From an uncultured Oscillospiraceae bacterium (GTDB lineage Bacteria; Bacillota; Clostridia; Oscillospirales; Oscillospiraceae): a DNA stretch of 64,000 nt. Where the stretch lies: NCBI GenBank assembly GCA_964446815.1, contig CAYUQN010000002.1, positions 5,463 to 69,462 on the forward strand. The letters are read 5' to 3'. This document shows positions 3,792 to 45,160 of this stretch, piece by piece; positions within the stretch are counted from its first letter, which is position 1, and each line of letters starts with the position of its first letter. Below the pieces are notes generated by a model, which was not told where the DNA came from, did no database searches, and was given only the letters and a program-made list of their open reading frames with translations. A program made the position numbers and the translations under genes.

Positions 3792-3986
3792 TTTTAGAAT
3801 GAGGCATAGCATCGGGTAAGCAGGTCTTAGGGTGTCCCTAACGAGGCCTTTTGCGCAGCTCGGCAGAACGGAGTAAAAAGGCACTGCTCGCTCAGATGGC
3901 ACAGACATCGGGCGACGCACTGTTTGGCTCTGGAGGAGTACAAACAGTCTGCTCGTTAAGATAATGCAGACGATTTCAGAGCAACG

Positions 3987-4037
3987 AAAAAGAGGCGCAG
4001 CAGGTGCTTACTTGTACCTGACTGCGCCTCTGATTTT
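3987..4037. terminator. Bidirectional rho-independent terminator between the convergent helicase and tnpV-like genes
   Basis: The 10-bp stem AGAGGCGCAG/CTGCGCCTCT is flanked by an A-run on one side and a T-run on the other. Confidence 0.6.
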
Positions 4038-4056
4038 CATCAAATTTTGTTGCTGC

Positions 4057-4440
4057 TCACACGAAAATGACCTCTGCGTTTACGATTTCCGTGGCTCGAT
4101 TGCGGATGCTGTTGCTCCGCCTGACCCATTCCATCAGGTCACTTGCTTTGAGCTTTTCGGTCAAGTTTTCTCTTTCGGACAGTTCCTTCACAAGCGTATC
4201 AAACATCACCTGTGCCAGGAATTCCACCTCAGCAAGATAATCGTTCAGTGTACCGGCGGTCAACAGATTGTAGTATCTCACCCGGTGGTGCTCCTTCAGA
4301 TATCGTCGGTGCCGTTGCCCCCAAATGCCGATTTGCACATCTTCTTGGTTGCTGATTTTGAGATCAGGCAGAAAATAATCGCCCGCCTGTCGATATGTGC
4401 CGCCCAGTTTTTCAAACTCCGTCATTGTGTTTCCCTCCAT
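4057..4440 (-). CDS. tnpV: TnpV-like transposon-associated protein
   Basis: This 127-aa protein has the pattern typical of Clostridial TnpV proteins (Tn4451 family): G.WGQRHRRYLKEHHRVRYYNLLTAGTLNDYLAEV ... LKASDLMEWVRRSNSIRNRATEIV. Confidence 0.7.
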   Translation of the reverse strand: MEGNTMTEFEKLGGTYRQAGDYFLPDLKISNQEDVQIGIWGQRHRRYLKEHHRVRYYNLLTAGTLNDYLAEVEFLAQVMFDTLVKELSERENLTEKLKASDLMEWVRRSNSIRNRATEIVNAEVIFV

Positions 4441-4644
4441 TCATCCTGTGTATATGATCTTGAACTTTTTGTGCTTTGCACCGATGATTTTCAGCAGCAC
4501 TTCGTCAACAGTGTCGGTATATCTGCCCTCTGTGATGAGCCTGCTGCGCAGATCATTCAGACTCCCAATAAGAATCCGCCGCTCTGCATCATCAAGTGCA
4601 AGATGATATTTCTGTTTCACATTCTGCCCTCCTTGTGCTATCAT
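4441..4644 (-). CDS. Small conserved protein commonly paired with TnpV on Clostridial integrative elements
   Basis: This 67-aa ORF ends immediately before the tnpV start, so the two are adjacent with no gap. The YHLALDDAERRILIGSLNDLRSRLITEGRYTDTVDEVLLKI pattern resembles small proteins next to TnpV. No function is assigned. Confidence 0.5.
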   Translation of the reverse strand: MIAQGGQNVKQKYHLALDDAERRILIGSLNDLRSRLITEGRYTDTVDEVLLKIIGAKHKKFKIIYTG

Positions 4645-4781
4645 TGTAACGGATAGGGCAGTAAAAATCGAATGTGCGGATAAAATTCTAAAGAAGCTGT
4701 TCGTGTGCGAGATGAAATATGTGTGTTTCTGCCGGTTAATTCATTGTTTTATGAAATCCGTTATCAGCACTCGCACCATGA

Positions 4782-4814
4782 AAAAAGCACTGACTTACGT
4801 CAGTGCTTTTTTCA
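4782..4814. repeat. Terminator-like hairpin, copy A of a 33-nt direct repeat (copy B at 17338-17370)
   Basis: The sequence aaaaagcactgacttacgtcagtgcttttttca has the stem AGCACTGAC/GTCAGTGCT. It is identical to copy B except for one loop base. Confidence 0.8.
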
Positions 4815-4887
4815 ATGATATCCGCTTCTGTCGGAACGGGTGAAATATCCTCGACATCATATCGCACAAGCGATATATCATTTAACA

Positions 4888-4916
4888 TTGAACTCCGTTG
4901 TTGTCTATGCTACAAT
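4888..4916 (+). promoter_or_regulatory. Candidate sigma-70-type promoter for the 4957 gene
   Basis: TTGAAC, 17-nt spacer, TACAAT, about 40 nt upstream of the ATG. Confidence 0.35.
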
Positions 4917-4956
4917 ATATTTAGACTAATATCCCTGCAAGAAAGGAGAGCCGATA

Positions 4957-5373
4957 ATGTCAAACGAAGAACTGACCTTTTATCCCAAGCATCCCTCGGG
5001 GCTCAAGACCCTGAGGATAGAGACTGCCGCAATGCCTACACTGTATCAGGACTCCCCCTTTTCCGTCAAAGCCTTGCACGATGAGTTTACGGCGGATGCC
5101 GATGCCTTTTTGGCAAGGTATACGGACAAGCGTTTTGAAGTCAAGGGTATCGCAAAGAAGATAGGGCCGGATGTCCACAACAAGCCCTCGATAGAGATAT
5201 CCGACAGCGTAGACGGTCAGACCTACGCACTGACCATCTTCCCCACCGATGAGCACTACGGCAGGGTTTCCGTTGGCGATATCGTGACTGTGCGCGCAAA
5301 CTACCTTGTGATGAGCAATCTGTTCGGAACCGTAATGAAATTCAGTGAGCTCGTCCTTGTCGAAAAAGCATAA
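4957..5373 (+). CDS. Hypothetical protein, possibly an OB-fold (tRNA_anti-like) domain
   Basis: The ORF has an AAGGAGAG Shine-Dalgarno sequence 6 nt upstream and codon usage like its neighbours. The domain call is a weak recollection of the family pattern (RFEVKG.....TI.P.. V.V.A). Confidence 0.5.
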   Translation: MSNEELTFYPKHPSGLKTLRIETAAMPTLYQDSPFSVKALHDEFTADADAFLARYTDKRFEVKGIAKKIGPDVHNKPSIEISDSVDGQTYALTIFPTDEHYGRVSVGDIVTVRANYLVMSNLFGTVMKFSELVLVEKA

Positions 5374-5388
5374 CGAGGAGGTAATATT

Positions 5389-6339
5389 ATGATCGAACTG
5401 AACCGTCTCGGACTCGGGACAATGGGAATGTCCCTTGCACGGAATCCGGAAAACTCCGTAAAAACAATACACGCCGCTTTGGATTCCGGTATCACGCTTT
5501 TTAACACAGGCGAATTCTACAATGCCGGAGAGAGCGAGCTTATCGTTGGCAAGGCTATGAAGGGCGTTGACCGTGACAAATACTTTTTATCCCTCAAATT
5601 CGGCGTTCTGCCTTCACCCGAAGGCGGAATATACGGTCTTGACGTGAAGCCCCGTAATGTCAAGGGACATTTGGCATACTCACTCCGCCGCCTCGGTCTT
5701 GAGTATGTTGACATATACCAGCCTGCGAGAATGGATACGACCATTCCCGTGGAGGATATAGTCGGTGCAATAGCAGAGCAGGTCGAGGCAGGCTACGTCA
5801 AGCATATAGGACTTAGCATGGTGGATGCCGAAACTCTGCGTCGTGCCTGCAAGGTTCACCCGATCCACACCGTTGAGCTGGAATATTCCTTGGTGCAGCG
5901 TGATATTGAGAGGGAGCTTATCGCCACGGCAAAGGAGCTGGGCGTAAAGGTGCTTGCCTTCGGCACCGTTGGGCACGGACTGCTCCGTGACGATATTCTG
6001 ACGGCTCCGGTGAGCTCCGGCAGAGCTTGGGGGATGCTTGCCCCCGATTACCGTGAGAACAATCTTGCGATGATACGCAAGGTCAAGGCTATCGCAGACG
6101 AAAAGGGCATTTCCCTTTCTCAGCTTGCACTTATCTGGAGCCTTTCGAAGTACGACCATATACAAAGCCTCATCGGTACCGCAAATCCGGAGCATTTGCA
6201 AGCCGCGATCGATGCTCTTAATGTCGAACTCACCGCAGAGGATATAGACCGCATCGAAGCGGCTATCCCTTCGGAAAAGATACTCGGTCTCGGAATGCGA
6301 AACTTCGTCTTCACCGACGGCGTAATGTCTCCTGCATGA
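5389..6339 (+). CDS. Aldo/keto reductase family oxidoreductase
   Basis: This 316-aa protein has the typical AKR N-terminus LGLGTMGMS, plus ..FNTGEFYNAGESE.. and ..DIYQPARMD.. motifs. A GAGGAGG Shine-Dalgarno sequence lies upstream. Confidence 0.85.
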   Translation: MIELNRLGLGTMGMSLARNPENSVKTIHAALDSGITLFNTGEFYNAGESELIVGKAMKGVDRDKYFLSLKFGVLPSPEGGIYGLDVKPRNVKGHLAYSLRRLGLEYVDIYQPARMDTTIPVEDIVGAIAEQVEAGYVKHIGLSMVDAETLRRACKVHPIHTVELEYSLVQRDIERELIATAKELGVKVLAFGTVGHGLLRDDILTAPVSSGRAWGMLAPDYRENNLAMIRKVKAIADEKGISLSQLALIWSLSKYDHIQSLIGTANPEHLQAAIDALNVELTAEDIDRIEAAIPSEKILGLGMRNFVFTDGVMSPA

Positions 6340-6362
6340 TCAAAATTATTCTTTCACACAGT

Positions 6363-6398
6363 ACAAGAAGCTCCTTGCCACGGCAAGGAGCTTCTTGT
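6363..6398. terminator. Bidirectional terminator between the AKR gene and the minus-strand operon
   Basis: A perfect 17-bp stem, ACAAGAAGCTCCTTGCC/GGCAAGGAGCTTCTTGT. Confidence 0.6.
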
Positions 6399-6414
6399 AT
6401 CTTGTGCCACTATA

Positions 6415-7827
6415 TCACTCTTCACAGAGTTTTTTGAGGCTTTCCTCTTTTTTGAGCTGGAGCTCTGCGATCTTCTGTTTGCCGAGGGGGTACATGAATC
6501 GCAGGACGAGGAAAATGAGGATATACAGTATTGCGGGGATGAGCACGGAATCGGAGTACATACTGCCGAGGGTGTCGGCGGTTATCTTATCCGCATTCAG
6601 AACGTTGTCGGTATAGCCGATACGGAGCAGTGCAACGTTTACAAGTATAGCGGCGACGGTCTGACCGAGCTTGCGCATGAAAGTGAAGAAGGCGTAGCTT
6701 GTTGCTTCATCGTGGATGCCGTAGGTGATCTCGTTATAGTCGATTGCATCGGTTGCGATAGCCCAGACAAGGAGGAAGATGAAGGCATTGCCTATGCCCG
6801 ACAGCAGGCATACCGCAAGATAGACCCAGACATTTGAAGTGCCGGTGACGTAGAGGATGAGATTGCAGACACCTGCAAAGAGCATGCCGTATGCACAGAC
6901 CTCTCTGCGACCGAACTTTGTTCCCATCTTACCGGCAAAGAGCATTATGACCGCAACGGGGAGGTACTGACAGGCAGTGGGGAGCATGGACAGACCGGGA
7001 GCGTTGAAGTAGTAATTGAACAGATAGGGGTAGTAGCTCTGGCTGAACATCTGAGCCGCAAGGAAGAGCATACCGACGATGCACACCGCCATATAGGGAC
7101 GGCTCTTTAAGAGGGTCTTGATCATTTTGACGGTCTGACCCTTTTGACGAACGGCAGGCTTAGTCTGAACTCTTTCCTTTGTCCAGCGATAGCTCAAAAG
7201 GAAGAGCACAACGGAAAGAACGGCAATGATTATTACGCCGATGAGTATCTTCTGATACGACATAACGGAAGTGCCGTCAGCCTGCTTGGTGTAGCAGAAG
7301 CTTATGAGCAGCATGGCGGGGATTGCACCGAGGGTAGAGCCGATGGAGCGGAACACAGACAGTGAGGAACGTTCCTTTTCATCGGAGGTTATGACCTGAG
7401 CAAGTGAGCCGTAGGGTATGTTTATCGCAGTGTACATCATGCCGAACAGAATGTAGGTCACATATGCATAGATGAGATACTGAGAGTCCGTAAGTCCGGG
7501 GATCTTTACGAACATGAGGACAGCGGACAGTGCAACGGGGACCGCAAGTATCTTCAGCCAACGGCGGTATCTTCCGCCCTCGGTGTTCTTCATGCCGTCG
7601 ACTATGCGTCCCCAGATGGGGTCATTGATGGCATCCCAAACACGGGCTATGATGAACATTATCATGATGCTGACGATACCGATACCGAGAACGTCGGTGT
7701 AGTACTTTTGCAGTACGCTCTGCACCAGACCGAATACCAGCAGGGAGGCTGCGTCACCCATGGCATAGCCGATCTTGTCACGGGTACCTATACCGCTGGT
7801 TTTGGCGATGTAAGTTTTGTTTTCCAT
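6415..7827 (-). CDS. Glycoside-pentoside-hexuronide (GPH):cation symporter family MFS transporter
   Basis: This 470-aa polytopic protein carries the GPH signature region GYAMGD...ARVWDAINDPIWGRIVD, like MelB, YicJ and YihO. Confidence 0.85.
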   Translation of the reverse strand: MENKTYIAKTSGIGTRDKIGYAMGDAASLLVFGLVQSVLQKYYTDVLGIGIVSIMIMFIIARVWDAINDPIWGRIVDGMKNTEGGRYRRWLKILAVPVALSAVLMFVKIPGLTDSQYLIYAYVTYILFGMMYTAINIPYGSLAQVITSDEKERSSLSVFRSIGSTLGAIPAMLLISFCYTKQADGTSVMSYQKILIGVIIIAVLSVVLFLLSYRWTKERVQTKPAVRQKGQTVKMIKTLLKSRPYMAVCIVGMLFLAAQMFSQSYYPYLFNYYFNAPGLSMLPTACQYLPVAVIMLFAGKMGTKFGRREVCAYGMLFAGVCNLILYVTGTSNVWVYLAVCLLSGIGNAFIFLLVWAIATDAIDYNEITYGIHDEATSYAFFTFMRKLGQTVAAILVNVALLRIGYTDNVLNADKITADTLGSMYSDSVLIPAILYILIFLVLRFMYPLGKQKIAELQLKKEESLKKLCEE

Positions 7828-7844
7828 TATTTCACCTCTGTATT

Positions 7845-9761
7845 TTATTCAGCCGCCGCTTGGCGGAAAAGCTCCGAATATTTACTGTCCGCTCTGTAGA
7901 ACACCGGACACTCGCCCAAGGCTGCCTTGACCCTGTATTTTTTGCCGCCGAGGTATTTTTTGCCGCTCCAAAGATGCACCCAATCGCCTTCGGGAAGCTG
8001 CACGGTTTTGCTCTTTGCACCGAGCCTTGTGACCGGAGCGACGAAAACATCGTCACCGAACATATAGGCATACTCGTCCCTGTGAGCTGAATGATCGTTT
8101 GCGGCCCAGAAGTCGGGGCGTATGACGGGTACACCGCTTTGAGCCTTTTTAACGCAGTCCGCGACGTATGGCTTTATCGCAGCATGAAGCCTTGTGAGCC
8201 TTACGGTGTAAGGCAATACTCCCTCTGCGTCAAACTGACTGTTTGCCCACGGTCTTATGGATTCATGGCTACGCATAAGCGGCGAGAAGGTGCTCATCTC
8301 CATCCAACGGATAAAGAGCTCATCATTGCGCTTGAGCTTCATAAAGGAGAAGAAGCCGCCGATATCGCAATGCACCAAGCTCACACCGGAAAAGCCGAGT
8401 GAGAAGCTTGCCGGCATGACACTGGGCATACCGTAGTCATGCGTTGTATCGGTGTGCTGATCGCCGTTCCACATGATCGGGGCATAGGTCTGAATACCGG
8501 TGTAGCCGGAACGGGTGAAGAAAAACACGTCTTCACTTGCGTATTCCTCTATCGCCTCACGGTTGAGCTTTGCCCACATGACAGGCCACTTGTTGTGCAA
8601 AAGCTTGGGGTCGCCGTCATGAAGAACGCAGTCCGAGGGCAGGTATTCTCCGAAGTCCGCCATCCAACCGCTCATACCGAGGTCGAGCATATTACGCTTT
8701 ATGAGGACTTCCTTTGTATACCGCACCGCCTCGGGATTCGTAAGATCGAGCATACCTGCATCAAAGGTCGTCGACTTAATGTGGTACACGCTGCCGTCCT
8801 TATGGGTGATAAGGTAGCCCTTTCCCTTGCAGTAATTATAAAGCTCACTGCCCTTGACGAGATAGGGATTTATATAGCCGAGGAATCTCACACCACGTTC
8901 ATTGAGCTTTTTGACAGCACCGGCAAGATCGGGGTAGAGCTTATCGTCTACCTCCCAGTTCCACCAGACCTGCTTGCCCATGATCGTTCTGTTCTCACCG
9001 GACCAGTCCTGACTCCAGACGGCGGAGACCTTAACGCCGCTATCCAGCATCGCAAATGCCTTTTTGAGTATCGTCTCCGTACCGCCCTGAATACCGAGTA
9101 TCATGCCGTCATGGCACCAATCGGGGAGGTACTGTCTGTTCGGGACAAGCTTTTGAAGCTCAATTGCCAGCTCCTCGAAGCTGTCTGCCGTCAAAAGAGT
9201 GAGACTTTCGGGGCAGGAATCGAATCTGAAAAGGTATTCGCTTTCACCGAACTCCGAATAGCCGTCGGAGGCTGTGTCGAATTTAATGAGCCGCTTTTCG
9301 CTCGTCACAAAAACGGGCATGGGTGAGTAGGTGCCGATATCGCCATGTCCCTTTTCACGGTACAAAATCTTCGGCAAAAGTGCTTTTTCGATGATGGTAG
9401 ATGCTTTAATGTGCTCCGATACGAAGTTTACGACCCTTTCGCCTCTGAGATCGAGCTTTCGGTATTGCTCACCGCCGCCGAAGATCGCTTCGCCCTCTGT
9501 CGCCGGTATGCGAAATTCGTAGGCGTAGCCCTCCTCACCGAAAAGCTCCGCTTTGATACCCTTTTCAAGCTCGGTGAGCTTCATTTCAAGAGAATGTCCG
9601 TTTGCGGAAAACACCGTTTTGCCGTCTGCCTCGGATATCTCGACAAGGGGGATACGCTCCGCTTCCCTCTCCGTTACCGATACCGTGCCACGGGAAGCCT
9701 TATACTCCTTCTCGCAGCGTACAGCCGTAACGAAGCTCGGAGTAATAAGCATTTTCTTCAT
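7845..9761 (-). CDS. GH31 alpha-glycosidase of the YihQ (sulfoquinovosidase-like) subfamily
   Basis: Blocks closely resemble E. coli YihQ: PDWCHDGMILGIQGGTE, VWSQDWSG, GKQVWWNW, FLGYINPY, DLTNPEA, GWMADFGEYLP (nucleophile Asp), MWNGDQ (acid/base Asp) and PVFYRADS. See the findings for the altered sulfonate triad. Confidence 0.85.
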   Translation of the reverse strand: MKKMLITPSFVTAVRCEKEYKASRGTVSVTEREAERIPLVEISEADGKTVFSANGHSLEMKLTELEKGIKAELFGEEGYAYEFRIPATEGEAIFGGGEQYRKLDLRGERVVNFVSEHIKASTIIEKALLPKILYREKGHGDIGTYSPMPVFVTSEKRLIKFDTASDGYSEFGESEYLFRFDSCPESLTLLTADSFEELAIELQKLVPNRQYLPDWCHDGMILGIQGGTETILKKAFAMLDSGVKVSAVWSQDWSGENRTIMGKQVWWNWEVDDKLYPDLAGAVKKLNERGVRFLGYINPYLVKGSELYNYCKGKGYLITHKDGSVYHIKSTTFDAGMLDLTNPEAVRYTKEVLIKRNMLDLGMSGWMADFGEYLPSDCVLHDGDPKLLHNKWPVMWAKLNREAIEEYASEDVFFFTRSGYTGIQTYAPIMWNGDQHTDTTHDYGMPSVMPASFSLGFSGVSLVHCDIGGFFSFMKLKRNDELFIRWMEMSTFSPLMRSHESIRPWANSQFDAEGVLPYTVRLTRLHAAIKPYVADCVKKAQSGVPVIRPDFWAANDHSAHRDEYAYMFGDDVFVAPVTRLGAKSKTVQLPEGDWVHLWSGKKYLGGKKYRVKAALGECPVFYRADSKYSELFRQAAAE

Positions 9762-9775
9762 TCATTCGCCTCCAT

Positions 9776-10438
9776 TCAGCTTATGTTCAGCTTTATGTTT
9801 TTACCGCTTATTCCGCAAAATGCCCCTGCCTTTGCCTGTGGGGAATCGGGATGGCATATGAGCCACTTCCCACGCATCCAAAGGAGCTCGTCCTCGGGGG
9901 TGAGGCATTTATGCTCGATATCAAGCGGAGAATTTACGCCTTTTTCAAGTACTACGAGACAATTAAAGCCCTCATCCGATATGCGACAGGGTGCAAAATG
10001 CAGCGTTGTCGGGAATATCTCTACCGCCGTATCGGGAGGGAGATAAAAGCCCTTGACGCATTCGGAGGACAAAGCATTGTCCTTAATATCATTTTTGAGT
10101 GCAAGCAGCAGCACAAGCCCCGTTGTGCTGTAGTTTACCTCGCTGCACTTGTGATATTCGAGAGCGTTCAAAGTATAGCCGTGACCGTTACAGTAGCCTG
10201 CCTGAATATCCATTCCGCCGAACGCGGTCTTAATACCGTCCATTGCGTCCGTTTTCTCCAAGCTCTCAAGTGACGCAACATAACGGTTTCCGCTCTCGGG
10301 TATCGGTGTTGCCGCAAGGCGGCATGAAAGCTCCTCGGCACCTCCGATGTTAAGCACTCTGCCGTAGGCGCCAAATTCACTGCCCGAAACCTCAAAGAGC
10401 TCAAGGTCGGGGTTTTGGCTTCTTAGCCTTTCTATCAT
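9776..10438 (-). CDS. DUF4867 cupin-like protein, a candidate sugar (sulfoquinovose-type) isomerase
   Basis: This 220-aa protein overlaps the upstream ROK gene stop with an ATGA. As I recall, DUF4867 is the family of the sulfoquinovose isomerase in Firmicute sulfoglycolysis clusters. Confidence 0.6.
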   Translation of the reverse strand: MIERLRSQNPDLELFEVSGSEFGAYGRVLNIGGAEELSCRLAATPIPESGNRYVASLESLEKTDAMDGIKTAFGGMDIQAGYCNGHGYTLNALEYHKCSEVNYSTTGLVLLLALKNDIKDNALSSECVKGFYLPPDTAVEIFPTTLHFAPCRISDEGFNCLVVLEKGVNSPLDIEHKCLTPEDELLWMRGKWLICHPDSPQAKAGAFCGISGKNIKLNIS

Positions 10439-11625
10439 CGCAATCCGCCTCGCTTCATGTGATCCAAAACGGCAATGAGCCCTGCCGCCTTGTTTTCGAG
10501 AAGCCCGTTGTAGGGGCTTCGTTCTATTATTACGCTTCGGCGTGAGTCCACGCCCTCGTTCATTTCCGCAATAAGCTTTGAGAGATAGTAGCCGTTGTCG
10601 AATATTCTGCCGTAGAGCACTATCTTCTCGGGATCGACTATGTATATGACGGACTTTAAGGCATTTCCCAGTGCCGCCACCGCACGGTCGAGTATCGCCG
10701 CGATCTGTGCATCGCCGTTTCTTGCGGCATCGAGAACTGCATTTATATCAAGGCGATCCCTTTTACCGTCAAGCATTTTCCAAAGCAGCGGAGTTTTGCT
10801 TTCCGACATGAGGGACAGTGCATCCTCGCATATCGCCATCGGAGACGCCACCGTTTCAAGGCAACCGCTTTTGCCGCAGGCACAGGGCTTTCCGCCTCTG
10901 GGTATGATGGGTATGTGCCCTATCTCGGAGCATTGACCCGAGCCGCCGAACCAAATACTGTTGTCGGTGCAAAGAGCCGCGCCTATACCGTATTCGCAAC
11001 GCAAGAAGAACTGCGAACTTATATCCCTGTCCTTTGCCATGAACATCTGTGCGGCAAAAAGAGCTCGGACATTGTTCTCCATAACGGTAGGCAAGCCGCA
11101 AAGCGTTGAGACCTTGTCGGCAAGGGGATAATCGCTGCAATCAAGAGCACCCATGCTGTTTCGTGAGATACGCCCCAGCTCGTCGGTAGTGCCTCTGACG
11201 GCGATACCGACACCGAGAAGCTTCTCCCTCGGGATATCCGATGAGAGGCAAAGCAATCTTTCACAAAGCATTTTCAGCGTTGCATCGGGCTCTGCCCTGT
11301 CGCATAGCTCAAGCTCCTCGGAGAATATCACGCTGCCGTCAAGCCAAACTGCGGAAAGTATCGCCTGTCTCCTGTTTATGAGTATTCCGAGGGCACAGCG
11401 TGAGAAGGGATCAAGCTCTATCATGACCTCCTTGCGCCCTGCCCTGCCTTGGGACAGAGCGTCACCCTCGACTACAAGTCCCTCACTCATGAGCTCCGAG
11501 ACTATCTTCGTCATTGCGGCAGGGGTCAGTCCGAGACTTTCCGCAAGGCGTTTTCTGCTCATTGCTCCGTTTTCGTGCAGCAGCATTAAAACGGAGCTTC
11601 GATTTGTCCGTCTGACGTTGCTCAT
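10435..11625 (-). CDS. ROK family transcriptional regulator (NagC/XylR-like)
   Basis: It has an N-terminal wHTH (NRSSVLMLLHENGAMSRKRLAESLGLTPAAMTKIV) and the ROK zinc motif GHIPI..GGKPCACGKSGCLE. The start is set at MSNVRR, with an AGGTGA Shine-Dalgarno sequence, rather than the upstream in-frame ATG. Confidence 0.85.
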   Translation of the reverse strand: MSNVRRTNRSSVLMLLHENGAMSRKRLAESLGLTPAAMTKIVSELMSEGLVVEGDALSQGRAGRKEVMIELDPFSRCALGILINRRQAILSAVWLDGSVIFSEELELCDRAEPDATLKMLCERLLCLSSDIPREKLLGVGIAVRGTTDELGRISRNSMGALDCSDYPLADKVSTLCGLPTVMENNVRALFAAQMFMAKDRDISSQFFLRCEYGIGAALCTDNSIWFGGSGQCSEIGHIPIIPRGGKPCACGKSGCLETVASPMAICEDALSLMSESKTPLLWKMLDGKRDRLDINAVLDAARNGDAQIAAILDRAVAALGNALKSVIYIVDPEKIVLYGRIFDNGYYLSKLIAEMNEGVDSRRSVIIERSPYNGLLENKAAGLIAVLDHMKRGGLR

Positions 11626-11629
11626 ATTG

Positions 11630-12538
11630 TCACCTGCTTGGAGCACAGCTTGTACCTCCCTTATGATGTAGCTTGTTTCTGAGCAGTATCACCGCCGCAC
11701 CGATAAGCACGACGAATATACCGAGTATTTTTTCCGTTGTAAGGCTTTCGTTCAGGAACATAACGCCTATAAAGCAGCTCAGTATAGGCATAAGCAGGAG
11801 GTAGAGCTTAACGAGCCACACCTCATAATGCCGCAGATTGCGATAGTAAAAGTAATAGATAAACGTCTGTGCCAAGCCGCCGAGCACCGCAAGAGCCCAA
11901 AATCCGATGCCTGCATCCTCGGGTATATGTGCATCGCCGCCGAGCAGCACCGAGGTACAAAAGAGACTCAGTACGACAAAGTTATTGTAATACGAAACGG
12001 TGTTTGCATCCTTGCCGAACTTCTCCTGTGCCGCCTTTATGATGAAGGCGTTTGCCGTGACGCAGGCTGCACTTGCAAGGAAAAAGAGGTCATAGGCATT
12101 GAAGCTTATGCCCTTGAAGCTTAAACCCAGCACCATCAAGACGCCTACCAGCATGATAGCCGTACCCAGCCAATCGGAGGCATAGAGCCGCTTTTTGTAT
12201 ATGATGACCGTTGCGAGATTCACCATCAGGACATCGGTTTTCAAAAGGGCGGTACCGGTACTCAGTGAGCCCTTCATGTAACCGAGGTTTGCAAAGAGAT
12301 CGAGCAAAAAGCCGAACGCACCGATGAGCAGCAGTATCCACAGTCCCCTCTTCTGCCGCAAAAGCTTTTTGAAGCCGCCGACGGCAAACAGCTGTACCGT
12401 CAAAAATACAAGTGCCGTGCTGCGTAGCAAAAGCCCTGCCATATACGGCGATCCGGTCATGGAGACCATGAGCTTCGAAACGGCATAGTACACCGCCCAT
12501 GACACGACCATACCGCCTATCATAAACGCTCTTTTCAT
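11630..12538 (-). CDS. EamA/DMT family transporter, a candidate product exporter
   Basis: This 302-aa protein has ~10 TM segments in two EamA-like halves. Its start overlaps the stop of the upstream Fe-ADH gene. Confidence 0.75.
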   Translation of the reverse strand: MKRAFMIGGMVVSWAVYYAVSKLMVSMTGSPYMAGLLLRSTALVFLTVQLFAVGGFKKLLRQKRGLWILLLIGAFGFLLDLFANLGYMKGSLSTGTALLKTDVLMVNLATVIIYKKRLYASDWLGTAIMLVGVLMVLGLSFKGISFNAYDLFFLASAACVTANAFIIKAAQEKFGKDANTVSYYNNFVVLSLFCTSVLLGGDAHIPEDAGIGFWALAVLGGLAQTFIYYFYYRNLRHYEVWLVKLYLLLMPILSCFIGVMFLNESLTTEKILGIFVVLIGAAVILLRNKLHHKGGTSCAPSR

Positions 12539-13626
12539 TTCAGACCTTCGAACATCCTCACAAGAGCTGCCTTGTCCAGTGCCACGGGATTATTCTTCAT
12601 AAGCGGATGAGCGGCACAGTCCTCCGAGAGCTTTTCGATATCCACATCACAGAGCTCACAAAGTCTTGTTTTAAGCCCCCCCAGGCTTTTGAAATATGCG
12701 ATCCTCTCCGCCAAAGCCTCGGTGCTGTCAAGTCCCACCCTATGGCACAGCGTTTCAAGACGCTCATCTGCGTTTATCCTCACAAGGCTGTCAAGCGTAA
12801 AGGCACAGGCCTCACCGTGAGGCAAATGATAGTCAGCGGAAAGCGGATAGCTGCAAGCGTGACTTGCCGCGGTCTTGGGCTGTGCAAAGGCAAGTCCCGC
12901 AAGCAGGGAGGCAAGGGACATATTGCGTCTTGCCTTTGTATCGCCTCCGTCCTTATACGCAGCTTCGAGATTGTCGAGTATGAGCCGCACCGCCTCGGTC
13001 GCATAGGCATCGCAAATGGGCTGATGATTCACGCTCCAGTAGCCCTCAAGAGCATGGGCAAGGGCATCGAGACCGGTGTTCATCGTCGTCCTCGGCGGTA
13101 CGGAATAGGTAAGCTCCGGATCGACAATGGCTATCTTGGGCATGAACACGGGGTTATTTATAGTCTTTTTCTCGCTGTCACGGCTTATTACCGATACCTG
13201 AGTTACCTCACTGCCGGTACCTGCGGTAGTCGGTATCGCAATGACCGGAAGATGCTCCTTCGGGAAATTTGCCGTCTCGTAATAATACTCAACGCTCTCG
13301 CTGCCGCATACGCAAGCGGATGCAAGCTTTGCCGTGTCGATGGAGCTTCCGCCGCCGATGCCGATTATGCAATCGGCGGAGCAGTGCCTTGCCATTGCTG
13401 TAACGCTCTTTACGCCGCTTAGCCGAGGATTCGGCAAGACCTCGGAAAACACGGCACATACAGCGGGAACACTGCTTCTAATCTCATTTGCACGCTCGGC
13501 AAAATGCTTTCCGCAGACTATGACACAACGGGAAAGCGACTCCCTTTCAAGTATCTCACCGAGCTTTGACAGCTCACCTGTGCCGAAGTATATCTTAACA
13601 GGCTGAGAATATACGAAATCAGCCAT
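12535..13626 (-). CDS. Iron-containing (group III) alcohol dehydrogenase
   Basis: It has the typical N-terminus FVYSQPVKIYFG and motifs GIGGGSSIDTAK and metal-site HALEGYW...HG. The start is chosen at MADFVY, preceded by GAGGA. Confidence 0.85.
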   Translation of the reverse strand: MADFVYSQPVKIYFGTGELSKLGEILERESLSRCVIVCGKHFAERANEIRSSVPAVCAVFSEVLPNPRLSGVKSVTAMARHCSADCIIGIGGGSSIDTAKLASACVCGSESVEYYYETANFPKEHLPVIAIPTTAGTGSEVTQVSVISRDSEKKTINNPVFMPKIAIVDPELTYSVPPRTTMNTGLDALAHALEGYWSVNHQPICDAYATEAVRLILDNLEAAYKDGGDTKARRNMSLASLLAGLAFAQPKTAASHACSYPLSADYHLPHGEACAFTLDSLVRINADERLETLCHRVGLDSTEALAERIAYFKSLGGLKTRLCELCDVDIEKLSEDCAAHPLMKNNPVALDKAALVRMFEGLK

Positions 13627-14092
13627 AGATCTCATCCTCTATGCTCTCGACACAGGCGTTGAAGCGTTTGAGATTTGTCTGTCTCCAATCCTCAAGTCCC
13701 TCGAGCCATTCGGTATTCAAAAACGCCTTTACCATCTCTATTGCCATCTCGGGGCCTACTATCCAACCGCCCATGCACAGGACGTTTGCACCGTTTATCG
13801 CCCTTGCCATTTTTGCGGAGTATACACCCTCACAGGCTACTGCGTGTACGCCCTTGTATTTGTTTGCCACGATGCACATACCTGCACCGGTGCCGCATAT
13901 GAGTATCGCACGGTCATATTCACCGCTCTGTACCTTGGGTGCAACGGCGGATGCCACCTCGTAGTAGGGGTGAACCTTGTCCTCCGTCACCGTACCGAGG
14001 TCGGAGAAATCCGCACCGATCTCCGTAAGATATGCCTTTATCGCTTCCTTTGCGGCAAAGCCCGATTTATCGCTTCCAACAGCTATTTTCAT
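13619..14092 (-). CDS. RpiB/LacA/LacB family sugar(-phosphate) isomerase
   Basis: It has MKIAVGSDKSGF..., ILICGTGAGMCIVANK and a typical RpiB length. The start ATG overlaps the transketolase stop (ATGA). Confidence 0.85.
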   Translation of the reverse strand: MKIAVGSDKSGFAAKEAIKAYLTEIGADFSDLGTVTEDKVHPYYEVASAVAPKVQSGEYDRAILICGTGAGMCIVANKYKGVHAVACEGVYSAKMARAINGANVLCMGGWIVGPEMAIEMVKAFLNTEWLEGLEDWRQTNLKRFNACVESIEDEIYG

Positions 14093-15006
14093 CTTAATAT
14101 CTCCCATACCTTGTTTACAATATTCTCCTCCGTAAAGCCCATGATCTCTCTGAGATACGGAAGCTTTCCGACTTCACCGAAGCGGTCGGGTACTCCGATC
14201 GCATAAACCGGGATGCACTCTGCCGCCAATGCCTCGGTAACTGCCGAATGAAGCCCGCCGATGACATTGTGATTCTCAACGGTAAGCACATTACCGGTCT
14301 TGCGTGCAGATGCAATTACCGTCTCACGGTCTATGGGCTTTATCGTGTGTACGTTTATGACCTCACAGGATATGCCCTCATCCGACAGCTTCTTTGCCGC
14401 ATTCAAAACGTCGTTCGTCAAAAATCCGCTGACGAAAATGCTTATATCACTGCCGTCACGGAGCTTGTCCGCCTTAAACAGATCGAACTTGTAATCACTT
14501 GGAAAGACCTCGGGGGTCTCCTTGCGGAACATACGGATATAAACGCAGCCGTCATAGTCGTTTATGATCGGAAGTGCCGCTTTAAGCTGATTGTTGTCAA
14601 CAGGCTCAAATATCACGACACCGGGGACGGAACGCAAAACACCGATATCCTCCATGCTCATGTGAGTACCGCCGTTGAGCTCAGCGGCGATACCGGGATC
14701 GGTGCCGATGATCTTGACATTCATACCGGCATACGCAACGGATATTGCTATCTGATCGCAGATCCTACGGGTGGCAAAGGGTGTGAAGCTTTCGATATAG
14801 GGCTTAAAGCCGTAGCTTGCGAGTCCTGCCGCAACGGATGCCATGTTCTGCTCCGCTATGCCGCAGTCGAACATCTGATTCGGGAAACGCTCATAAAGTG
14901 CCCTCGTTCCGCTTGCCTTTGAAAGATCGGCGTCGAGAATACAGACATGGCGATCGGCCTCCATAAGCTTTGCCATACATTCGGCGTAAACAGCTCTCAT
15001 TTCCAT
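14089..15006 (-). CDS. Transketolase, C-terminal (pyrimidine-binding) subunit
   Basis: This 305-aa protein has the FDCGIAEQNMASVAAGLA motif. It is adjacent to and co-oriented with the N-terminal subunit, which is the split-TK arrangement. Confidence 0.9.
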   Translation of the reverse strand: MEMRAVYAECMAKLMEADRHVCILDADLSKASGTRALYERFPNQMFDCGIAEQNMASVAAGLASYGFKPYIESFTPFATRRICDQIAISVAYAGMNVKIIGTDPGIAAELNGGTHMSMEDIGVLRSVPGVVIFEPVDNNQLKAALPIINDYDGCVYIRMFRKETPEVFPSDYKFDLFKADKLRDGSDISIFVSGFLTNDVLNAAKKLSDEGISCEVINVHTIKPIDRETVIASARKTGNVLTVENHNVIGGLHSAVTEALAAECIPVYAIGVPDRFGEVGKLPYLREIMGFTEENIVNKVWEILR

Positions 15007-15007
15007 A

Positions 15008-15835
15008 TCAGCATTCTCCTCTCACTTCTTTTATCGCTTCCTCTGCCTCTGCTTCGGAAAGGTTCATATTGTGATTGCCTGCACCCTTTGCGATGACGGA
15101 TGCGACACCGCAGCCCTTAACGGTGTTGAGTATCACCATGGTGGGCTTTCCGCTGCCGAGATTCTTCTTTGCCTCGCTCACCGCCGAGGACACCAAAGAG
15201 ACATCGTTGCCGTCACTGACCTCGATAAGGTTCCAGCCGAAGGCACGCCACTTGTCACCAAGCGGTGCGATATCGCAGACCTCGGCAACACTGCCGTCTA
15301 TCTGCAGCTTATTGTAATCGGTAAAGCCTATTAAATTATCAAGCTTCTTCGCAGCGGCAAACATTGCAGCTTCCCAGATCTGACCCTCCTGAGATTCACC
15401 GTCACCGATAAGGGTGAAGATAAATGCTCCGTCACCCTCAAGCTTGGAGCCGAGAGCAACACCGGCTGCACATGAAAAGCCCTGACCGAGGCTGCCTGTG
15501 GTCATATCGACACCGACGGTACGGTTCATGTCACAATGGCTGGGAAGATTCGTACCGCTTCTGTTGAGCGTCAAAAGCTCAGCCTTGTCAAAGAAACCCC
15601 TGTTTGCGAGAGTTGCATACACAGCAGGGCCTGCATGACCCTTTGAGCATATAAACCTGTCACGTCCTGCCATCTTCGGGTTTTCGGGATCTATGTTCAT
15701 CTGCTGAAAATACAGCACGGCCAAAAGCTCGACAACGGAAAGGCAACCGCCGAGGTGACCTACTCCGAGGTGGCCTATGCACCGCAGCGTGTCACAGCGA
15801 ATATCCTTGCAGATCTCCTTCAAATCTTGTTTCAA
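15008..15835 (-). CDS. Transketolase, N-terminal (TPP-binding) subunit
   Basis: This 275-aa protein has GHLGGCLS, SKGHAGPAVYA and the TPP-binding motif GDGESQEGQIWEA. It uses a TTG start with a GGAGGA Shine-Dalgarno sequence 7 nt upstream. Confidence 0.9.
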   Translation of the reverse strand: MKQDLKEICKDIRCDTLRCIGHLGVGHLGGCLSVVELLAVLYFQQMNIDPENPKMAGRDRFICSKGHAGPAVYATLANRGFFDKAELLTLNRSGTNLPSHCDMNRTVGVDMTTGSLGQGFSCAAGVALGSKLEGDGAFIFTLIGDGESQEGQIWEAAMFAAAKKLDNLIGFTDYNKLQIDGSVAEVCDIAPLGDKWRAFGWNLIEVSDGNDVSLVSSAVSEAKKNLGSGKPTMVILNTVKGCGVASVIAKGAGNHNMNLSEAEAEEAIKEVRGEC

Positions 15836-15877
15836 TTTGAAATCCTCCTTATTTGATAAAAAGCTTTAATCAATTCG

Positions 15878-15906
15878 ATTTTAATATGTATATACCTCTT
15901 TGTCAA
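15878..15906 (-). promoter_or_regulatory. Candidate promoter of the 9-gene minus-strand operon
   Basis: On the minus strand: TTGACA, 17-nt spacer, TAAAAT, about 40 nt upstream of the transketolase start. Confidence 0.45.
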
Positions 15907-15918
15907 GAAATAAAAGCA

Positions 15919-15947
15919 TTGACAGCGGATGCTTTAAAGCTTATCAT
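15919..15947 (+). promoter_or_regulatory. Candidate divergent promoter for the FucI-like gene
   Basis: TTGACA, 17-nt spacer, TATCAT. The small palindrome TTAACtttGTTAA lies between the promoter and the Shine-Dalgarno sequence. Confidence 0.4.
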
Positions 15948-15988
15948 TGACACAGAAATTAACTTTGTTAATCAAAGGAGAAGCCGAT

Positions 15989-17329
15989 ATGAAAAACTTC
16001 ACCCCCATCTATGTTCCGGTCGGTGCTCCGACCTTCCATCTCGAATCTGCGGCAGAGCAGTTTGAAAGGTCGAAAAAGCTACTCGGCAGTATCGACGGCA
16101 GGTTTATATTCCCCGATGAAATGCTGCTTACGCTCGATCTGCTCACCGACTTTCTCGACGGAGTTTCCCCCGATGTCGTGGTGTTTCAGAATATAACCTT
16201 TGCAAATGCCGCATTCGTATCCGAGCTCAAGCGGCGTTTTGATTGCCCTGTTTTGCTGTGGACTCTCCGTGAACCGGTGATCGACGGCGGCAGGCTCCGC
16301 CTCAATTCGCTGACCGGTGCATATTCCGCCGCAAACGCAATGCACGCTTTCGGTGACGATAGCTTCGGCTACGTTTTCGGTTCCCCCGATGAGGCTCGCA
16401 CGAGGGCGGAGATAGCCTCATTCATCGAAGCGGCAAGGCTCAAAAAGCAAATGCGTTCTCTGCGTATGGCTGCTGTCGGTCATACTCCGCAGGGCTTCGG
16501 CTTCGGCAGAGCCCTGGATACGGAGCTTATGAACAAGTTCGGTGTGGAGCTTGTGTCCGTCGAGGCAAGGGAGCTGATAGCTTTGGCAAAGTCGTATTCC
16601 GATGATGAGTGCGAAGAGTATCTCAAAAAGTCGGAATGTGCAATGTGCGGTCTTGCCAAAACGCCCGAAAAAAATCGCCGTGACTATGCACGGCTTTACA
16701 AGGCTTATTCCGAATATGTGAGCAAAAACGGTATCGGAGCACTTGCATCACGCTGCTGGCCGGACTTCTTCACCGATTTCGGTACCCCGGTATGCTCGGT
16801 GCTGTCCATGCTCGGCGATGACGGTGTTGCGGCAGCCTGTGAGGCGGATATCTACGGTGCCTTGTCCATGTGGATGGGTATGTCTCTCAGCGGCTCACCG
16901 ACGTTTTTCGGTGATCCCGTATCCCTCGATGAGGGCGACAATTCGATCACCTTCTGGCATTGCGGTGCAGCCGCCTGTTCGCTTGCAAGGCGAGATACCG
17001 GAGCGGTCGTCGGCGTTCACCCCAATCGCAAGATAGGCCCTGCGATGGACTTCGGCTGTGAGGCGTATCCCGAGGTAACGGTGTTAAGAGTGGGAAAAAA
17101 GCCGGACGGCAGCTTCAGATTCTTTGTGTGTGAGGGCGAGGCTCTCGATAAGCCCAAGCAGTTTACCGGAACCTCGATAGTCGTCCGGACAAACGGCGAT
17201 TGCAGGAGCATCGTCGAAAGCAGCGTAAAGCAGGGCTTTGAGCCCCACTTTGCCGTCATCCGAGGTCACCACGCAAGCACTCTTGTAAACCTCGCCAAGC
17301 TCCTCGGTATCGAGGTATGTGAGTATTGA
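15989..17329 (+). CDS. L-fucose/L-arabinose isomerase family protein, substrate unknown
   Basis: This is a 446-aa protein starting at MKNFTPIYV with an AAAGGAG Shine-Dalgarno sequence. Family resemblance rests on ..GHTPQGFGFG.., ..ASRCWPDF.. and ..ACEADIYGALSM.. blocks. Confidence 0.65.
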   Translation: MKNFTPIYVPVGAPTFHLESAAEQFERSKKLLGSIDGRFIFPDEMLLTLDLLTDFLDGVSPDVVVFQNITFANAAFVSELKRRFDCPVLLWTLREPVIDGGRLRLNSLTGAYSAANAMHAFGDDSFGYVFGSPDEARTRAEIASFIEAARLKKQMRSLRMAAVGHTPQGFGFGRALDTELMNKFGVELVSVEARELIALAKSYSDDECEEYLKKSECAMCGLAKTPEKNRRDYARLYKAYSEYVSKNGIGALASRCWPDFFTDFGTPVCSVLSMLGDDGVAAACEADIYGALSMWMGMSLSGSPTFFGDPVSLDEGDNSITFWHCGAAACSLARRDTGAVVGVHPNRKIGPAMDFGCEAYPEVTVLRVGKKPDGSFRFFVCEGEALDKPKQFTGTSIVVRTNGDCRSIVESSVKQGFEPHFAVIRGHHASTLVNLAKLLGIEVCEY

Positions 17330-17337
17330 TAACAAGC

Positions 17338-17370
17338 AAAAAGCACTGACTTTCGTCAGTGCTTTTTTCA
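17338..17370. terminator. Bidirectional terminator hairpin, copy B of the 33-nt repeat, abutting the tRNA-Leu 3' end
   Basis: The sequence is aaaaagcactgactttcgtcagtgcttttttca. It lies 8 nt after the FucI-like stop and directly after the tRNA CCA end on the other strand. Confidence 0.75.
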
Positions 17371-17458
17371 TGGTGCACGAGGCGGGACTTGAACCCGCAC
17401 GCCCGGAGTGAGCACTAGAACCTGAATCTAGCGAGTCTGCCAATTCCACCACTCGTGC
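17371..17458 (-). tRNA. tRNA-Leu(CAG): tRNA-Leu, anticodon CAG, type II long variable arm, CCA encoded
   Basis: The reverse complement reads GCACGAG..CTAGA-TTCAGGT-TCTAG..GGGTTCAAGTCCC..CTCGTGCACCA. The acceptor stem has 7 bp, the anticodon loop has CAG, and a T-arm is present. Confidence 0.9.
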
Positions 17459-24505: not shown

Positions 24506-24643
24506 CAGCTTCTGCGGTAGCTTGCCATAAACTGAGGGGAGTCGAGCATTCGGTATTATTTGACTGTACAGAATAATATTCCTTGCTATTCCGTCAAAAG
24601 ACTGTTAAAATGTTTGATAACAAATCCTTTAAGGGGTGTTATT

Positions 24644-45067: not shown

Positions 45068-45160
45068 GGAGAAGTCGCGTAGTCCGGCCGAGCGCGCACG
45101 ATTGGAAATCGTGTAAACCCCATAAGGGTTTCGAGGGTTCAAATCCCTCCTTCTCCGCCA
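45068..45160 (+). tRNA. tRNA-Ser(GGA): tRNA-Ser, anticodon GGA, long variable arm, CCA encoded
   Basis: It reads GGAGAAG...CACGA-TTGGAAA-TCGTG...GAGGGTTCAAATCCCTC CTTCTCC GCCA. A terminator hairpin follows at 45163-45205. Confidence 0.9.

Follow-up and report, generated by a model that had tools for sequence, protein, structure and literature searches.

A probable sulfo-transketolase locus for sulfoquinovose fermentation in an uncultured gut Oscillospiraceae bacterium, with a variant YihQ-like glycosidase and a candidate ROK operator

In the sulfo-transketolase (sulfo-TK) pathway, sulfoquinovose (SQ), a sulfosugar of plants, is isomerized to sulfofructose (SF) by the FucI-like enzyme SqvD (PF02952) (Liu et al. 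2021, reviewed in PMC9594981 and PMC12890257). The transketolase SqwGH converts SF to 4-deoxy-4-sulfoerythrose, SqwI (PF02502) isomerizes this product to 4-deoxy-4-sulfoerythrulose, SqwGH later generates sulfoacetaldehyde, and SqwF (PF00465) makes isethionate, which is exported by SqwE (PMC9594981, PMC12890257). Recombinant enzymes of Clostridium sp. MSTE9 catalyze the sulfo-TK steps (PMC9594981), and physiology and proteomics showed that a homologous cluster of Faecalicatena is induced by SQ (PMC11659671). Transcripts of sqwGHI from Ca. Limivicinus, Caproiciproducens and Sphaerochaetaceae accompany the conversion of SQ to isethionate in the cow rumen, a conversion also carried out by Caproiciproducens KNHs216, and some Ca. 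Limivicinus species harbor two yihQ copies and show signs of lateral transfer (PMC13219744). Here we analyzed a 64,000-nucleotide stretch from an uncultured Oscillospiraceae bacterium (contig CAYUQN010000002.1, positions 5,463 to 69,462; the window), which holds a ten-gene cluster. Judged from its residue signatures and its recurrence in other genomes, this cluster is very probably a complete, self-regulated sulfo-TK locus for SQ in a strictly anaerobic, uncultured Oscillospiraceae-like gut Firmicute.

In the open reading frame (ORF) list, the cluster consists of nine minus-strand ORFs running from 15835 to 6415 and one divergent plus-strand ORF ending at 17329. An earlier note on this DNA had proposed that the nine ORFs form a one-strand operon; they were recovered at exactly the coordinates it gave, and Pfam and NCBIfam returned the families it had named. 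Starting from 15835, the genes encode the two transketolase (TK) subunits TK-N and TK-C, an RpiB-like isomerase, an iron-type alcohol dehydrogenase (Fe-ADH), an EamA permease, a ROK protein, a DUF4867 protein, a GH31 glycosidase and a GPH symporter. The features of the locus are listed below.

6362-6399, no strand: likely terminator hairpin between the convergent GPH and aldo/keto-reductase genes
6415-7827, minus strand: GPH/MFS_2 symporter (PF13347, E=2.6e-73; TIGR00792, 293 bits)
7845-9761, minus strand: GH31 YihQ-like alpha-glycosidase (NCBIfam NF007746/PRK10426, the YihQ model, 619.3 bits against a cutoff of 553)
9776-10438, minus strand: DUF4867 cupin, SqvB/SftX (PF16161, 218.5 bits against a cutoff of 28.7)
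10435-11646, minus strand: ROK regulator with an N-terminal winged helix-turn-helix (wHTH) (PF00480, E=1.4e-34; MarR/HTH_24 at residues 18-58)
11630-12523, minus strand: EamA/DMT permease (PF00892, two repeats)
12535-13626, minus strand: Fe-ADH, putative SqwF (PF00465 and PF25137)
13619-14092, minus strand: RpiB/LacAB-family isomerase, putative SqwI (PF02502, E=1.8e-43)
14089-15006, minus strand: TK-C, Pyr and C subunit, putative SqwH (PF02779 and PF02780)
15008-15835, minus strand: TK-N, subunit binding thiamine diphosphate (ThDP), putative SqwG (PF00456, E=3.6e-46)
15853-15873, no strand: palindrome O1, TTGATAAAAAGCTTTAATCAA, candidate ROK operator
15878-15906, minus strand: sigma-70-like promoter of the nine-gene operon (TTGACA-17-TAAAAT, 11/12 consensus positions)
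15919-15947, plus strand: sigma-70-like promoter of sqvD (TTGACA-17-TATCAT, 11/12 consensus positions)
15955-15975, no strand: palindrome O2, GAAATTAACTTTGTTAATCAA, a weaker copy of the O1 motif
15989-17329, plus strand: FucI-like SqvD/SftI, 446 aa (NF048012, E=9.9e-120; PF02952 C-domain)
17338-17367, no strand: hairpin AAAAAGCACTGAC-N4-GTCAGTGCTTTTT from the terminator scan, a bidirectional terminator between sqvD and tRNA-Leu

Start sites were taken also from gene calls on public contigs that are 99.99 to 100% identical to the window. These calls shorten four genes, placing the start of sqvD at an ATG at 15989 and those of the RpiB-like, ADH and EamA genes at 14092, 13626 and 12523, from ORF-list coordinates of 15947-17329(+), 13619-14107(-), 12535-13635(-) and 11630-12538(-), respectively. 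A TTG start giving a 460-aa SqvD was rejected because it overlaps the -10 box of the gene itself and gene callers choose the ATG at 15989. With the shorter starts, the junctions are overlaps of 4 to 17 nt or gaps of 1 to 17 nt, in agreement with the overlapping or nearly abutting genes described earlier: a 1-nt gap between TK-N and TK-C, overlaps of 4 nt (TK-C/RpiB-like) and 8 nt (RpiB-like/ADH), an 11-nt gap (ADH/EamA), overlaps of 17 nt (EamA/ROK) and 4 nt (ROK/DUF4867), and gaps of 14 nt (DUF4867/GH31) and 17 nt (GH31/GPH).

The assignment to the sulfo-TK pathway is supported by residues of the transketolase and of the RpiB-like protein. TK-C aligned with the ordinary split transketolase of Carboxydothermus (PDB 6YAK, C-chain) with E=8e-66, and the residues read from this alignment, R4/A31/F/D103/R158, spell RAFDR: both arginines are kept, while the phosphate-orienting Ser and His are swapped for Ala31 and Asp103. 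RAFDR is found in sulfofructose transketolases and RSFHR in ordinary ones, and Faecalicatena proteins sharing RAFDR are 58 to 68% identical to those of MSTE9 (PMC11659671, section 3.4 for the motif). We then scanned one genome per species with a TK-C alignment query, which gave 582 relatives, of which the best 80 are referred to as the 80 loci. The RAFDR residues were kept in 77 to 80 of them and also in two more distant sulfo-TK clusters, L086 and L089. The translation of TK-N, which has a TTG start preceded by AGGAGG and is 275 aa long as called on the identical public contigs, shows the GDG...N ThDP/metal motif. A PDB search with the transketolase returned no sulfo-TK transketolase entry (SqwGH).

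The RpiB/LacAB-family isomerase gene adjoins the transketolase genes, as expected for sqwI. Alignment with E. coli RpiB showed that D9, C66, T68, N100 and R137 are retained and that H10, H99, R133 and H134 are replaced by K, I, L and E. In RpiB, we take H99 to be the residue that opens the furanose ring and R133, H134 and R137 to be the phosphate ligands; the window protein has accordingly kept the catalytic Cys, Thr and Asp and lost two of the three phosphate ligands. The loss of H99 fits the proposed substrate, because an acyclic C4 sulfonate (a tetrose) needs no ring opening. The K/I/L/E signature was found in 75 to 77 of the 78 sequences compared. The sole exception is an ordinary RpiB, encoded in locus L088 beside ribulose-phosphate epimerase; it displays H/H/R/H and therefore serves as an internal control. 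The use of the SqwH and SqwI residue signatures as annotation markers appears to be new.

Comparison of the loci showed that the grouping of these genes is far beyond chance, the gene set and its order being seen again in dozens of species-level genomes. All of the best 80 of the 582 relatives are uncultured Oscillospiraceae, Lachnospiraceae or other Clostridia, with TK-C identities of 67 to 81%, 81% being the highest value for any species representative. Many are ruminant gut metagenome-assembled genomes (MAGs), and two are Ca. Limivicinus MAGs (L053 and L072), which display the same core order and a TK-C that is 72 to 75% identical; MSTE9 is absent from these best 80. SqvD, TK-N, TK-C, the RpiB-like protein and ADH occur together in 59 of the 80 loci, and all eight core families in the window order with sqvD divergent in 33. 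More distant sulfo-TK clusters, such as L089 with its canonical SQase, TauE exporter and ROK protein, encode TK-N, TK-C and RpiB-like proteins that are about 56 to 61% identical to those of the window. As to the host, housekeeping proteins of the window cluster at 90% identity or more with those of human-gut "Firmicutes bacterium CAG:555/CAG:240" and "Oscillospiraceae bacterium," and the window also encodes an anaerobic NrdD and a BofC-like sporulation protein. The earlier proposal of a sulfo-TK operon with isethionate export, made from gene content, is thus now supported by residue signatures and comparative genomics as well, and the names SqwGH, SqwI and SqwF given to its products agree with the literature (PMC9594981). 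The earlier note had counted few characterized examples of the pathway, but it is no longer rare: it is the dominant route of SQ degradation in the cow rumen and is encoded in 35.5% of 313 Ca. Limivicinus genomes (PMC13219744).

The divergent FucI-like gene had been regarded as an addition to the pathway. It matched the NCBIfam "sulfoquinovose isomerase" model NF048012 over 438 of 443 model positions (400 bits, E=9.9e-120), and on the basis of this match and of the published role of SqvD (PMC9594981) we assign it instead as the core SQ-to-SF isomerase, SqvD/SftI. A FucI-like gene lies opposite TK-N in 72 of the 80 loci, with SqvD identities of 61 to 75%. No relative of SqvD was found in the PDB at E<=0.01. 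Considered more broadly, sulfoglycolysis clusters encode FucI-like isomerases of at least two types that have diverged deeply.

The DUF4867 protein belongs to the PF16161 cupin family, as had been anticipated, and lies in a sulfoglycolysis cluster that contains SqvD. It matched PDB 9GYY (188 bits, E=9e-55), which we take to be the B. megaterium DUF4867 structure of PMC11968277, the PDB table giving no organism. For this family (SqvB/SftX), only a role as mutarotase or ring-opening helper has been proposed, and a dedicated study detected no activity (PMC11968277). The protein is a conserved accessory of Firmicute sulfoglycolysis clusters and a putative mutarotase or ring opener.

The next two genes of the proposed pathway are assigned from their position. 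Fe-ADH directly follows the RpiB-like gene in 63 of the 80 loci and would be SqwF, using NADH to reduce sulfoacetaldehyde to isethionate. Pfam scans of the cluster and of the larger ORFs in the rest of the 64-kb window detected neither SqwD nor SqwKL. The EamA permease, conserved after ADH in 56 of the 80 loci, would be the isethionate exporter, doing the job of a TauE-type SqwE; the SQ-induced cluster of Faecalicatena likewise encodes a DMT permease, and TauE holds the exporter role in L089 and in L085, a sulfo-transaldolase (sulfo-TAL, or sulfo-SFT) cluster of Clostridium sp. DL1XJH146. By analogy with YihO, the GPH (MFS_2) cation symporter is the presumed importer of SQ or SQ-glycerol, and its gene adjoins a GH31 gene of the window type (Q-type, described below) in 28 of 32 related loci.

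A variant of such clusters was observed in an ENA metagenome scaffold (L086, positions 1 to 13644). It is sulfo-TK-like, lacks Fe-ADH, and encodes ROK, SqvD-type, DUF4867, TK-N, TK-C (RAFDR) and RpiB-like proteins, a GFO/IDH/MocA oxidoreductase, an ABC importer, an AP_endonuc_2 protein (a xylose-isomerase-like TIM), a Q-type GH31 and a glycerate kinase. Sulfoacetaldehyde may be handled differently by this cluster.

We then compared the GH31 protein with E. coli YihQ (PDB 5AED), to which it aligned with E=3e-134, and mapped its residues from this alignment. The catalytic aspartate pair is kept, as D369 in GWMADFGE and D434 in MWNGDQ (YihQ D405 and D472), Q251 corresponds to Q288, and W267 corresponds to W304. 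Three residues are substituted: R301 by Q264, G368 by T331, and Y508 by F470. The canonical motif for recognition of the sulfonate and side chain is Q/E-R-W-Y, formed by Q288, R301, W304 and Y508 (PMC12780224), and all four solved YihQ-like structures carry R...W...Y. The earlier description of the enzyme as YihQ-like therefore holds for its overall sequence, which also scores above the cutoff of the NCBIfam YihQ model, but not for the sulfonate motif. Because the protein lacks Q/E-R-W-Y, we filed it as YihQ-like, variant subclass, and not as a canonical member.

Two GH31 clades were distinguished in the 80 loci. Clade A enzymes display the canonical Q-R-W-Y and are 35 to 41% identical to the window GH31; such a sulfoquinovosidase lies beside the core in 21 loci, in 20 of them as the sole GH31. 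Two of these loci, L001 and L017, were examined; DUF624 accompanies the enzyme in both, and L001 adds an ABC importer. Clade B enzymes, present in 32 of the 80 loci, display Q-Q-W-F and are 60 to 75% identical to the window GH31. Locus L017 holds both. In all of the approximately 30 clade B sequences that cover these positions, Q-Q-W-F and both catalytic aspartates are kept, and a decayed pseudoenzyme was rejected on this conservation. Beyond these loci, Q outnumbers R at the R301 position among the best 150 representatives of 50%-identity clusters. In an alignment of 236 sequences, exactly one other column, that of E. coli G368, tracked R301 versus Q: glycine is present in 104 of 108 R-types and threonine in 88 of 103 Q-types, as in the window protein (T331). 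The replacement of R301 by Q is thus coupled to that of G368 by T across the YihQ-like GH31 family (P0173-P0440). Full-text literature searches returned no report of R301Q-type YihQ-like enzymes or of the R301-G368 coupling, and the Q/T(/F) subclass appears to be new.

Genomic context shows that the Q-type GH31 belongs to sulfoglycolysis. One Q-type enzyme lies in a textbook sulfo-TAL cluster (P0176, Clostridium sp. DL1XJH146) and another in a sulfo-TK-like cluster (P0177), and the window GH31 itself shares its operon with SqwGHIF-type genes. On this context, we regard the enzyme of the window as most likely a sulfoquinovosidase whose sulfonate pocket has been remodelled and carries no charge. 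We give about even credence to the broader view that it represents a large, apparently uncharacterized YihQ-like Q/T subclass (with Y508F in its own clade) that is embedded in sulfo-TK and sulfo-TAL clusters and usually paired with GPH. If Q-types are active SQases, they would have a second, charge-neutral mode of sulfonate recognition or a distinct SQ-glycoside specificity, and surveys that define SQases by the R-W-Y motif would under-count them.

Turning to regulation, the ROK protein combines an N-terminal winged helix with a ROK sugar-binding domain carrying the CxCGxxGCxE zinc motif. The presence of the wHTH identifies it as a regulator and not a kinase; a sugar kinase was rejected also because the DxGxT ATP motif is apparently missing from the translation. 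It scored 150 bits with the NagC model (cutoff, 650) and 140 bits with the Mlc model (cutoff, 530). The earlier note had counted this gene, too, as an addition. In the archetype MSTE9, however, a homologous "putative transcriptional regulator" (IMG 2524472433) lies directly upstream of SqvB (PMC11659671 supplement), so the ROK gene is no addition. The Faecalicatena homologue, annotated as an NBD/HSP70-type sugar kinase, is read as a member of the ROK family, and ROK genes recur in other sulfo-TK and sulfo-TAL clusters.

The 153-bp intergenic region between sqvD and TK-N contains two back-to-back promoters, each followed by a 21-bp palindrome with the consensus TTGATTAA-N5-TTAATCAA. O1 sits between the -10 box of the operon and the ribosome-binding site of TK-N, while O2, with three mismatches to the consensus, lies just downstream of the -10 box of sqvD. 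With 0.26 palindrome hits expected, the 64 kb contain just these two. A clear phylogenetic footprint, made up of the -35 and -10 boxes, the palindrome and the ribosome-binding site, is shared by species with proteins only 60 to 80% identical: the operon -35 box, TTGACAAA, is invariant in an alignment of eight sequences, the -35 and -10 boxes of the sqvD promoter are kept, and an element TTAATTAAC-N-TTTAAnAATCA is kept at the O2 position in other species. In 34 of 77 loci the palindrome occurs within the 600 bp that precede TK-N, compared with 17 sites in the remaining 1.33 Mb, an enrichment of about 58-fold, and it was present in 28 of 49 loci with ROK versus 6 of 28 without. These data make the palindromes a probable ROK operator, and the ROK protein would act as a repressor of both divergent promoters. 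Full-text literature searches combining sulfoquinovose and the ROK family found nothing; the operator motif appears to be new and, if the assignment is true, TTGATTAA-N5-TTAATCAA would be the first operator of a ROK-type sulfoglycolysis regulator. At the other end of the operon, the hairpin at 6362-6399 has a 17-bp stem and a folding energy of -36.5 kcal/mol (z=-6.4; RNA fold of 6335-6420 on the minus strand), and none of 200 shuffles was as good. It is likely a bidirectional terminator ending the operon.

Combining these assignments with the reaction chemistry of published homologues, we propose the following pathway, in which each attribution to a window gene is conditional. SQ-glycerol or SQ would be imported by the GPH symporter, the alpha-sulfoquinovoside would be hydrolyzed by GH31, and anomerization or ring opening may be helped by DUF4867. 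SQ would then be isomerized to SF by the divergently transcribed SqvD. The split ThDP enzyme SqwGH would move C1-C2 of SF to glyceraldehyde-3-phosphate, yielding xylulose-5-phosphate and 4-deoxy-4-sulfoerythrose, and the RpiB-like SqwI would convert the latter to 4-deoxy-4-sulfoerythrulose. Removal of a second ketol unit by SqwGH would give sulfoacetaldehyde, to be reduced to isethionate by the Fe-ADH SqwF and exported by the EamA permease. Both promoters are probably repressed by the operon-encoded ROK/wHTH protein, which would bind the 21-bp palindrome downstream of either -10 box; derepression would be brought about by SQ or SF.

Several observations weigh against this reading. SqvD, at 400 bits, falls below the equivalog cutoff of NF048012 (700 bits) and is only about 25% identical to the SqvD-type proteins of the sulfo-TK and sulfo-TAL clusters L085, L086 and L089. 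The best curated models for ADH are PsrA and ErcA, its best PDB match is methanol dehydrogenase, its score with the SarD model is 171 bits against a cutoff of 700, and its substrate cannot be read from its sequence. The exporter is an EamA protein and not a TauE-type SqwE. Of the three residues that canonically contact the sulfonate, GH31 is without R301 and Y508, and two of four individually checked Q-type GH31 lie outside obvious sulfoglycolysis clusters. The last two points bear on an alternative in which the core is that of a sulfo-TK pathway but GH31 and GPH serve another substrate (another SQ glycoside, the glycoside of a modified sulfosugar, or a neutral alpha-glycoside), free SQ entering by another route. 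GH31 would then not be a true sulfoquinovosidase. We consider this unlikely. It would account for the changes at R301 and Y508 and the coupled change at G368, and for the two Q-type GH31/GPH pairs outside sulfoglycolysis clusters, one of which lies by a rhamnosidase and an AraC regulator. Locus L017, where a Q-R-W-Y enzyme of the canonical type (with DUF624) coexists with a Q-Q-W-F enzyme (with GPH), likewise suggests that the roles of the two are non-redundant. Yet the Q-type is the only GH31 beside the sulfo-TK core in 31 of the 80 loci, and 20 of 26 Q-type metagenome loci carry SqvD, DUF4867, transaldolase or SF-type TK genes, most of the remaining ones being contigs shorter than 6.5 kb; moreover, the window enzyme scores above the curated YihQ cutoff and retains the equivalents of W304, Q288 and both catalytic aspartates.

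Two other explanations concern the core itself. Bifurcated sulfo-TK/sulfo-TAL pathways, as in Faecalicatena and Caproiciproducens, and sulfoacetate-forming variants (SqwD/SqwKL) exist in related Clostridia (PMC11659671, PMC13219744, PMC12890257), and the window locus could be one of these. However, the cluster, the regions flanking it and the larger ORFs in the rest of the 64-kb window, all scanned with Pfam, revealed no transaldolase (PF00923), CoA-acylating aldehyde dehydrogenase or ADP-forming CoA ligase, while an Fe-ADH occupies the SqwF position; such a variant was rejected for the window and is very unlikely overall. An ordinary carbohydrate operon, with a normal pentose-phosphate TK and RpiB, an alpha-glucosidase, a symporter and a ROK regulator or kinase and no link to sulfonates, is suggested by the fact that all ten proteins belong to large general families, whose best NCBIfam names include "transketolase," "ribose-5-phosphate isomerase B" and "alpha-glucosidase." Ordinary pentose-phosphate enzymes were rejected on the motifs of TK-C (Ser and His replaced by Ala and Asp) and of the RpiB-like protein (loss of H10, H99, R133 and H134). 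In addition, SQ isomerase, DUF4867 and canonical SQases accompany the gene set in many species, homologous clusters are induced by SQ or transcribed on SQ, and the wHTH makes ROK a regulator rather than a kinase, so that this explanation is hardly tenable. We retain the sulfo-TK reading of the locus as very probable.

The surroundings of the cluster provided some further observations. Window positions 5916-17372 are 100.000% identical over 11,457 bp, comprising the whole SQ cluster, to positions 2012-13468 of a metagenome contig (L081, from SRR17221338), whose left flank (TetR and HXXEE genes) is unrelated to the window. The homology ends exactly at the 3' end of tRNA-Leu(CAG) (window 17371/17372), a pattern suggesting that the entire cluster moved laterally or recombined very recently, or that the assembly is chimeric at the hairpin. 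The AAAAAGCACTGAC-N4-GTCAGTGCTTTTT hairpin at 17338-17367 is one arm of a repeat, with its sole other copy in the window at 4782-4811. Together with the preceding GCACCATG, which includes the last bases of tRNA-Leu, the repeat spans 4773-4812 and 17338-17376; the two copies are inverted, with none expected by chance, and flank a 12.6-kb segment comprising a tRNA_anti-like gene, an aldo/keto reductase gene and the SQ cluster. The aldo/keto reductase gene (5389-6339, plus strand) converges on the end of the operon, occupies the same position in a near-identical contig (L082) and has no evident role in SQ metabolism. Positions 30-4700 have a GC content of 0.43 to 0.46, versus 0.51 to 0.53, and encode a 1253-aa helicase with an MTES_1575 restriction-endonuclease domain (a DUF3320 match was weak and below threshold) and a TnpV transposon protein (4057-4440, minus strand). 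This region probably belongs to a mobile or defence element that borders the cluster. Within the 64-kb window, we saw no recombinase.

On the other side, a 6S RNA (21005-21210, plus strand; Rfam, 65 bits), tRNA-Leu(CAG) (17371-17458, minus strand) and tRNA-Ser(GGA) (45068-45160, plus strand) indicate an ordinary chromosomal context. A second MFS_2/GPH-type transporter of 530 aa (24560-26152, plus strand) lies 7 kb from the cluster and showed no link to any of the glycosidases checked. The window also encodes a 631-aa leucine-rich-repeat protein (37309-39204, plus strand) and a capsule/exopolysaccharide block (45385-53076, minus strand) with a DegT aminotransferase, Polysacc_synt_2, two Wzz/tyrosine-kinase-like proteins and CpsB.

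In the gut, H2S-producing Desulfovibrionaceae are fed by the isethionate that SQ fermentation yields, and the locus would add a further uncultured Oscillospiraceae-like gut lineage to the known sulfo-TK degraders, a useful and expected addition. Beyond this, the SqwH and SqwI residue signatures distinguish these enzymes from housekeeping transketolase and RpiB and could improve annotation, there is evidence that a large Q/T subclass associated with sulfoglycolysis escapes the R-W-Y rule published for GH31 sulfoquinovosidases, and the palindromes provide a testable candidate for the operator motif bound by the ROK regulator in sulfoglycolysis clusters of Firmicutes.

Sulfo-TK clusters of the type found in the window are already described and well documented in rumen and gut Clostridia. 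Compared by gene families and published gene numbers, the MSTE9 cluster shares with the window a FucI-like SqvD, a split SqwGH, an RpiB-like SqwI, an Fe-ADH SqwF, a GH31 and isethionate as the product, as well as a DUF4867 SqvB directly after a ROK-type regulator. It differs in having ADH ahead of the TK genes, judged from IMG gene numbers 2524472426-2437, and in its transporters, an ABC importer and the sulfite/sulfonate exporter SqwE, where the window has a GPH symporter and an EamA permease. The rumen and gut clusters of Ca. Limivicinus, Caproiciproducens and Neosphaerochaeta share with the window the class of habitat, the bacterial order and the isethionate pathway (PMC13219744). However, the Caproiciproducens clusters include a transaldolase and no YihQ, whereas the window has a variant GH31 and no transaldolase, and, unlike the hosts of the Ca. 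Limivicinus-type rumen clusters, the window groups by its housekeeping proteins with human-gut CAG:555/CAG:240.

The sulfo-TAL clusters of Bacillus, E. rectale and Clostridium share SqvD/SftI, DUF4867, GH31, ROK and a GPH or ABC importer with the window, and the L085 example even combines a Q-type GH31 with GPH, ROK and DUF4867. They rely, however, on a transaldolase and a sulfolactaldehyde reductase, give a C3 sulfonate and have a TauE exporter, whereas transketolase, SqwI and SqwF of the window would give a C2 sulfonate. The GH31_13 SQases (E. coli YihQ, 5AED/5OHT; A. tumefaciens, 5OHS; E. rectale SftG, 6PNR) align over their full length with the window GH31 (E=1e-124 to 1e-134) and share with it the nucleophile, the acid/base Asp, Q288 and W304, but they have R301, Y508 and G368 where the window enzyme has Q, F and T; in the survey of homologues, Q-types equalled or exceeded R-types in number. 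Finally, repressors of the NagC/Mlc/XylR type combine a wHTH with a ROK domain carrying the zinc motif, as does the window ROK protein, and like theirs its candidate operators are AT-rich palindromes of about 21 bp that overlap the promoter or lie just downstream of it, although the protein itself scores far below both the NagC and the Mlc equivalog cutoffs.

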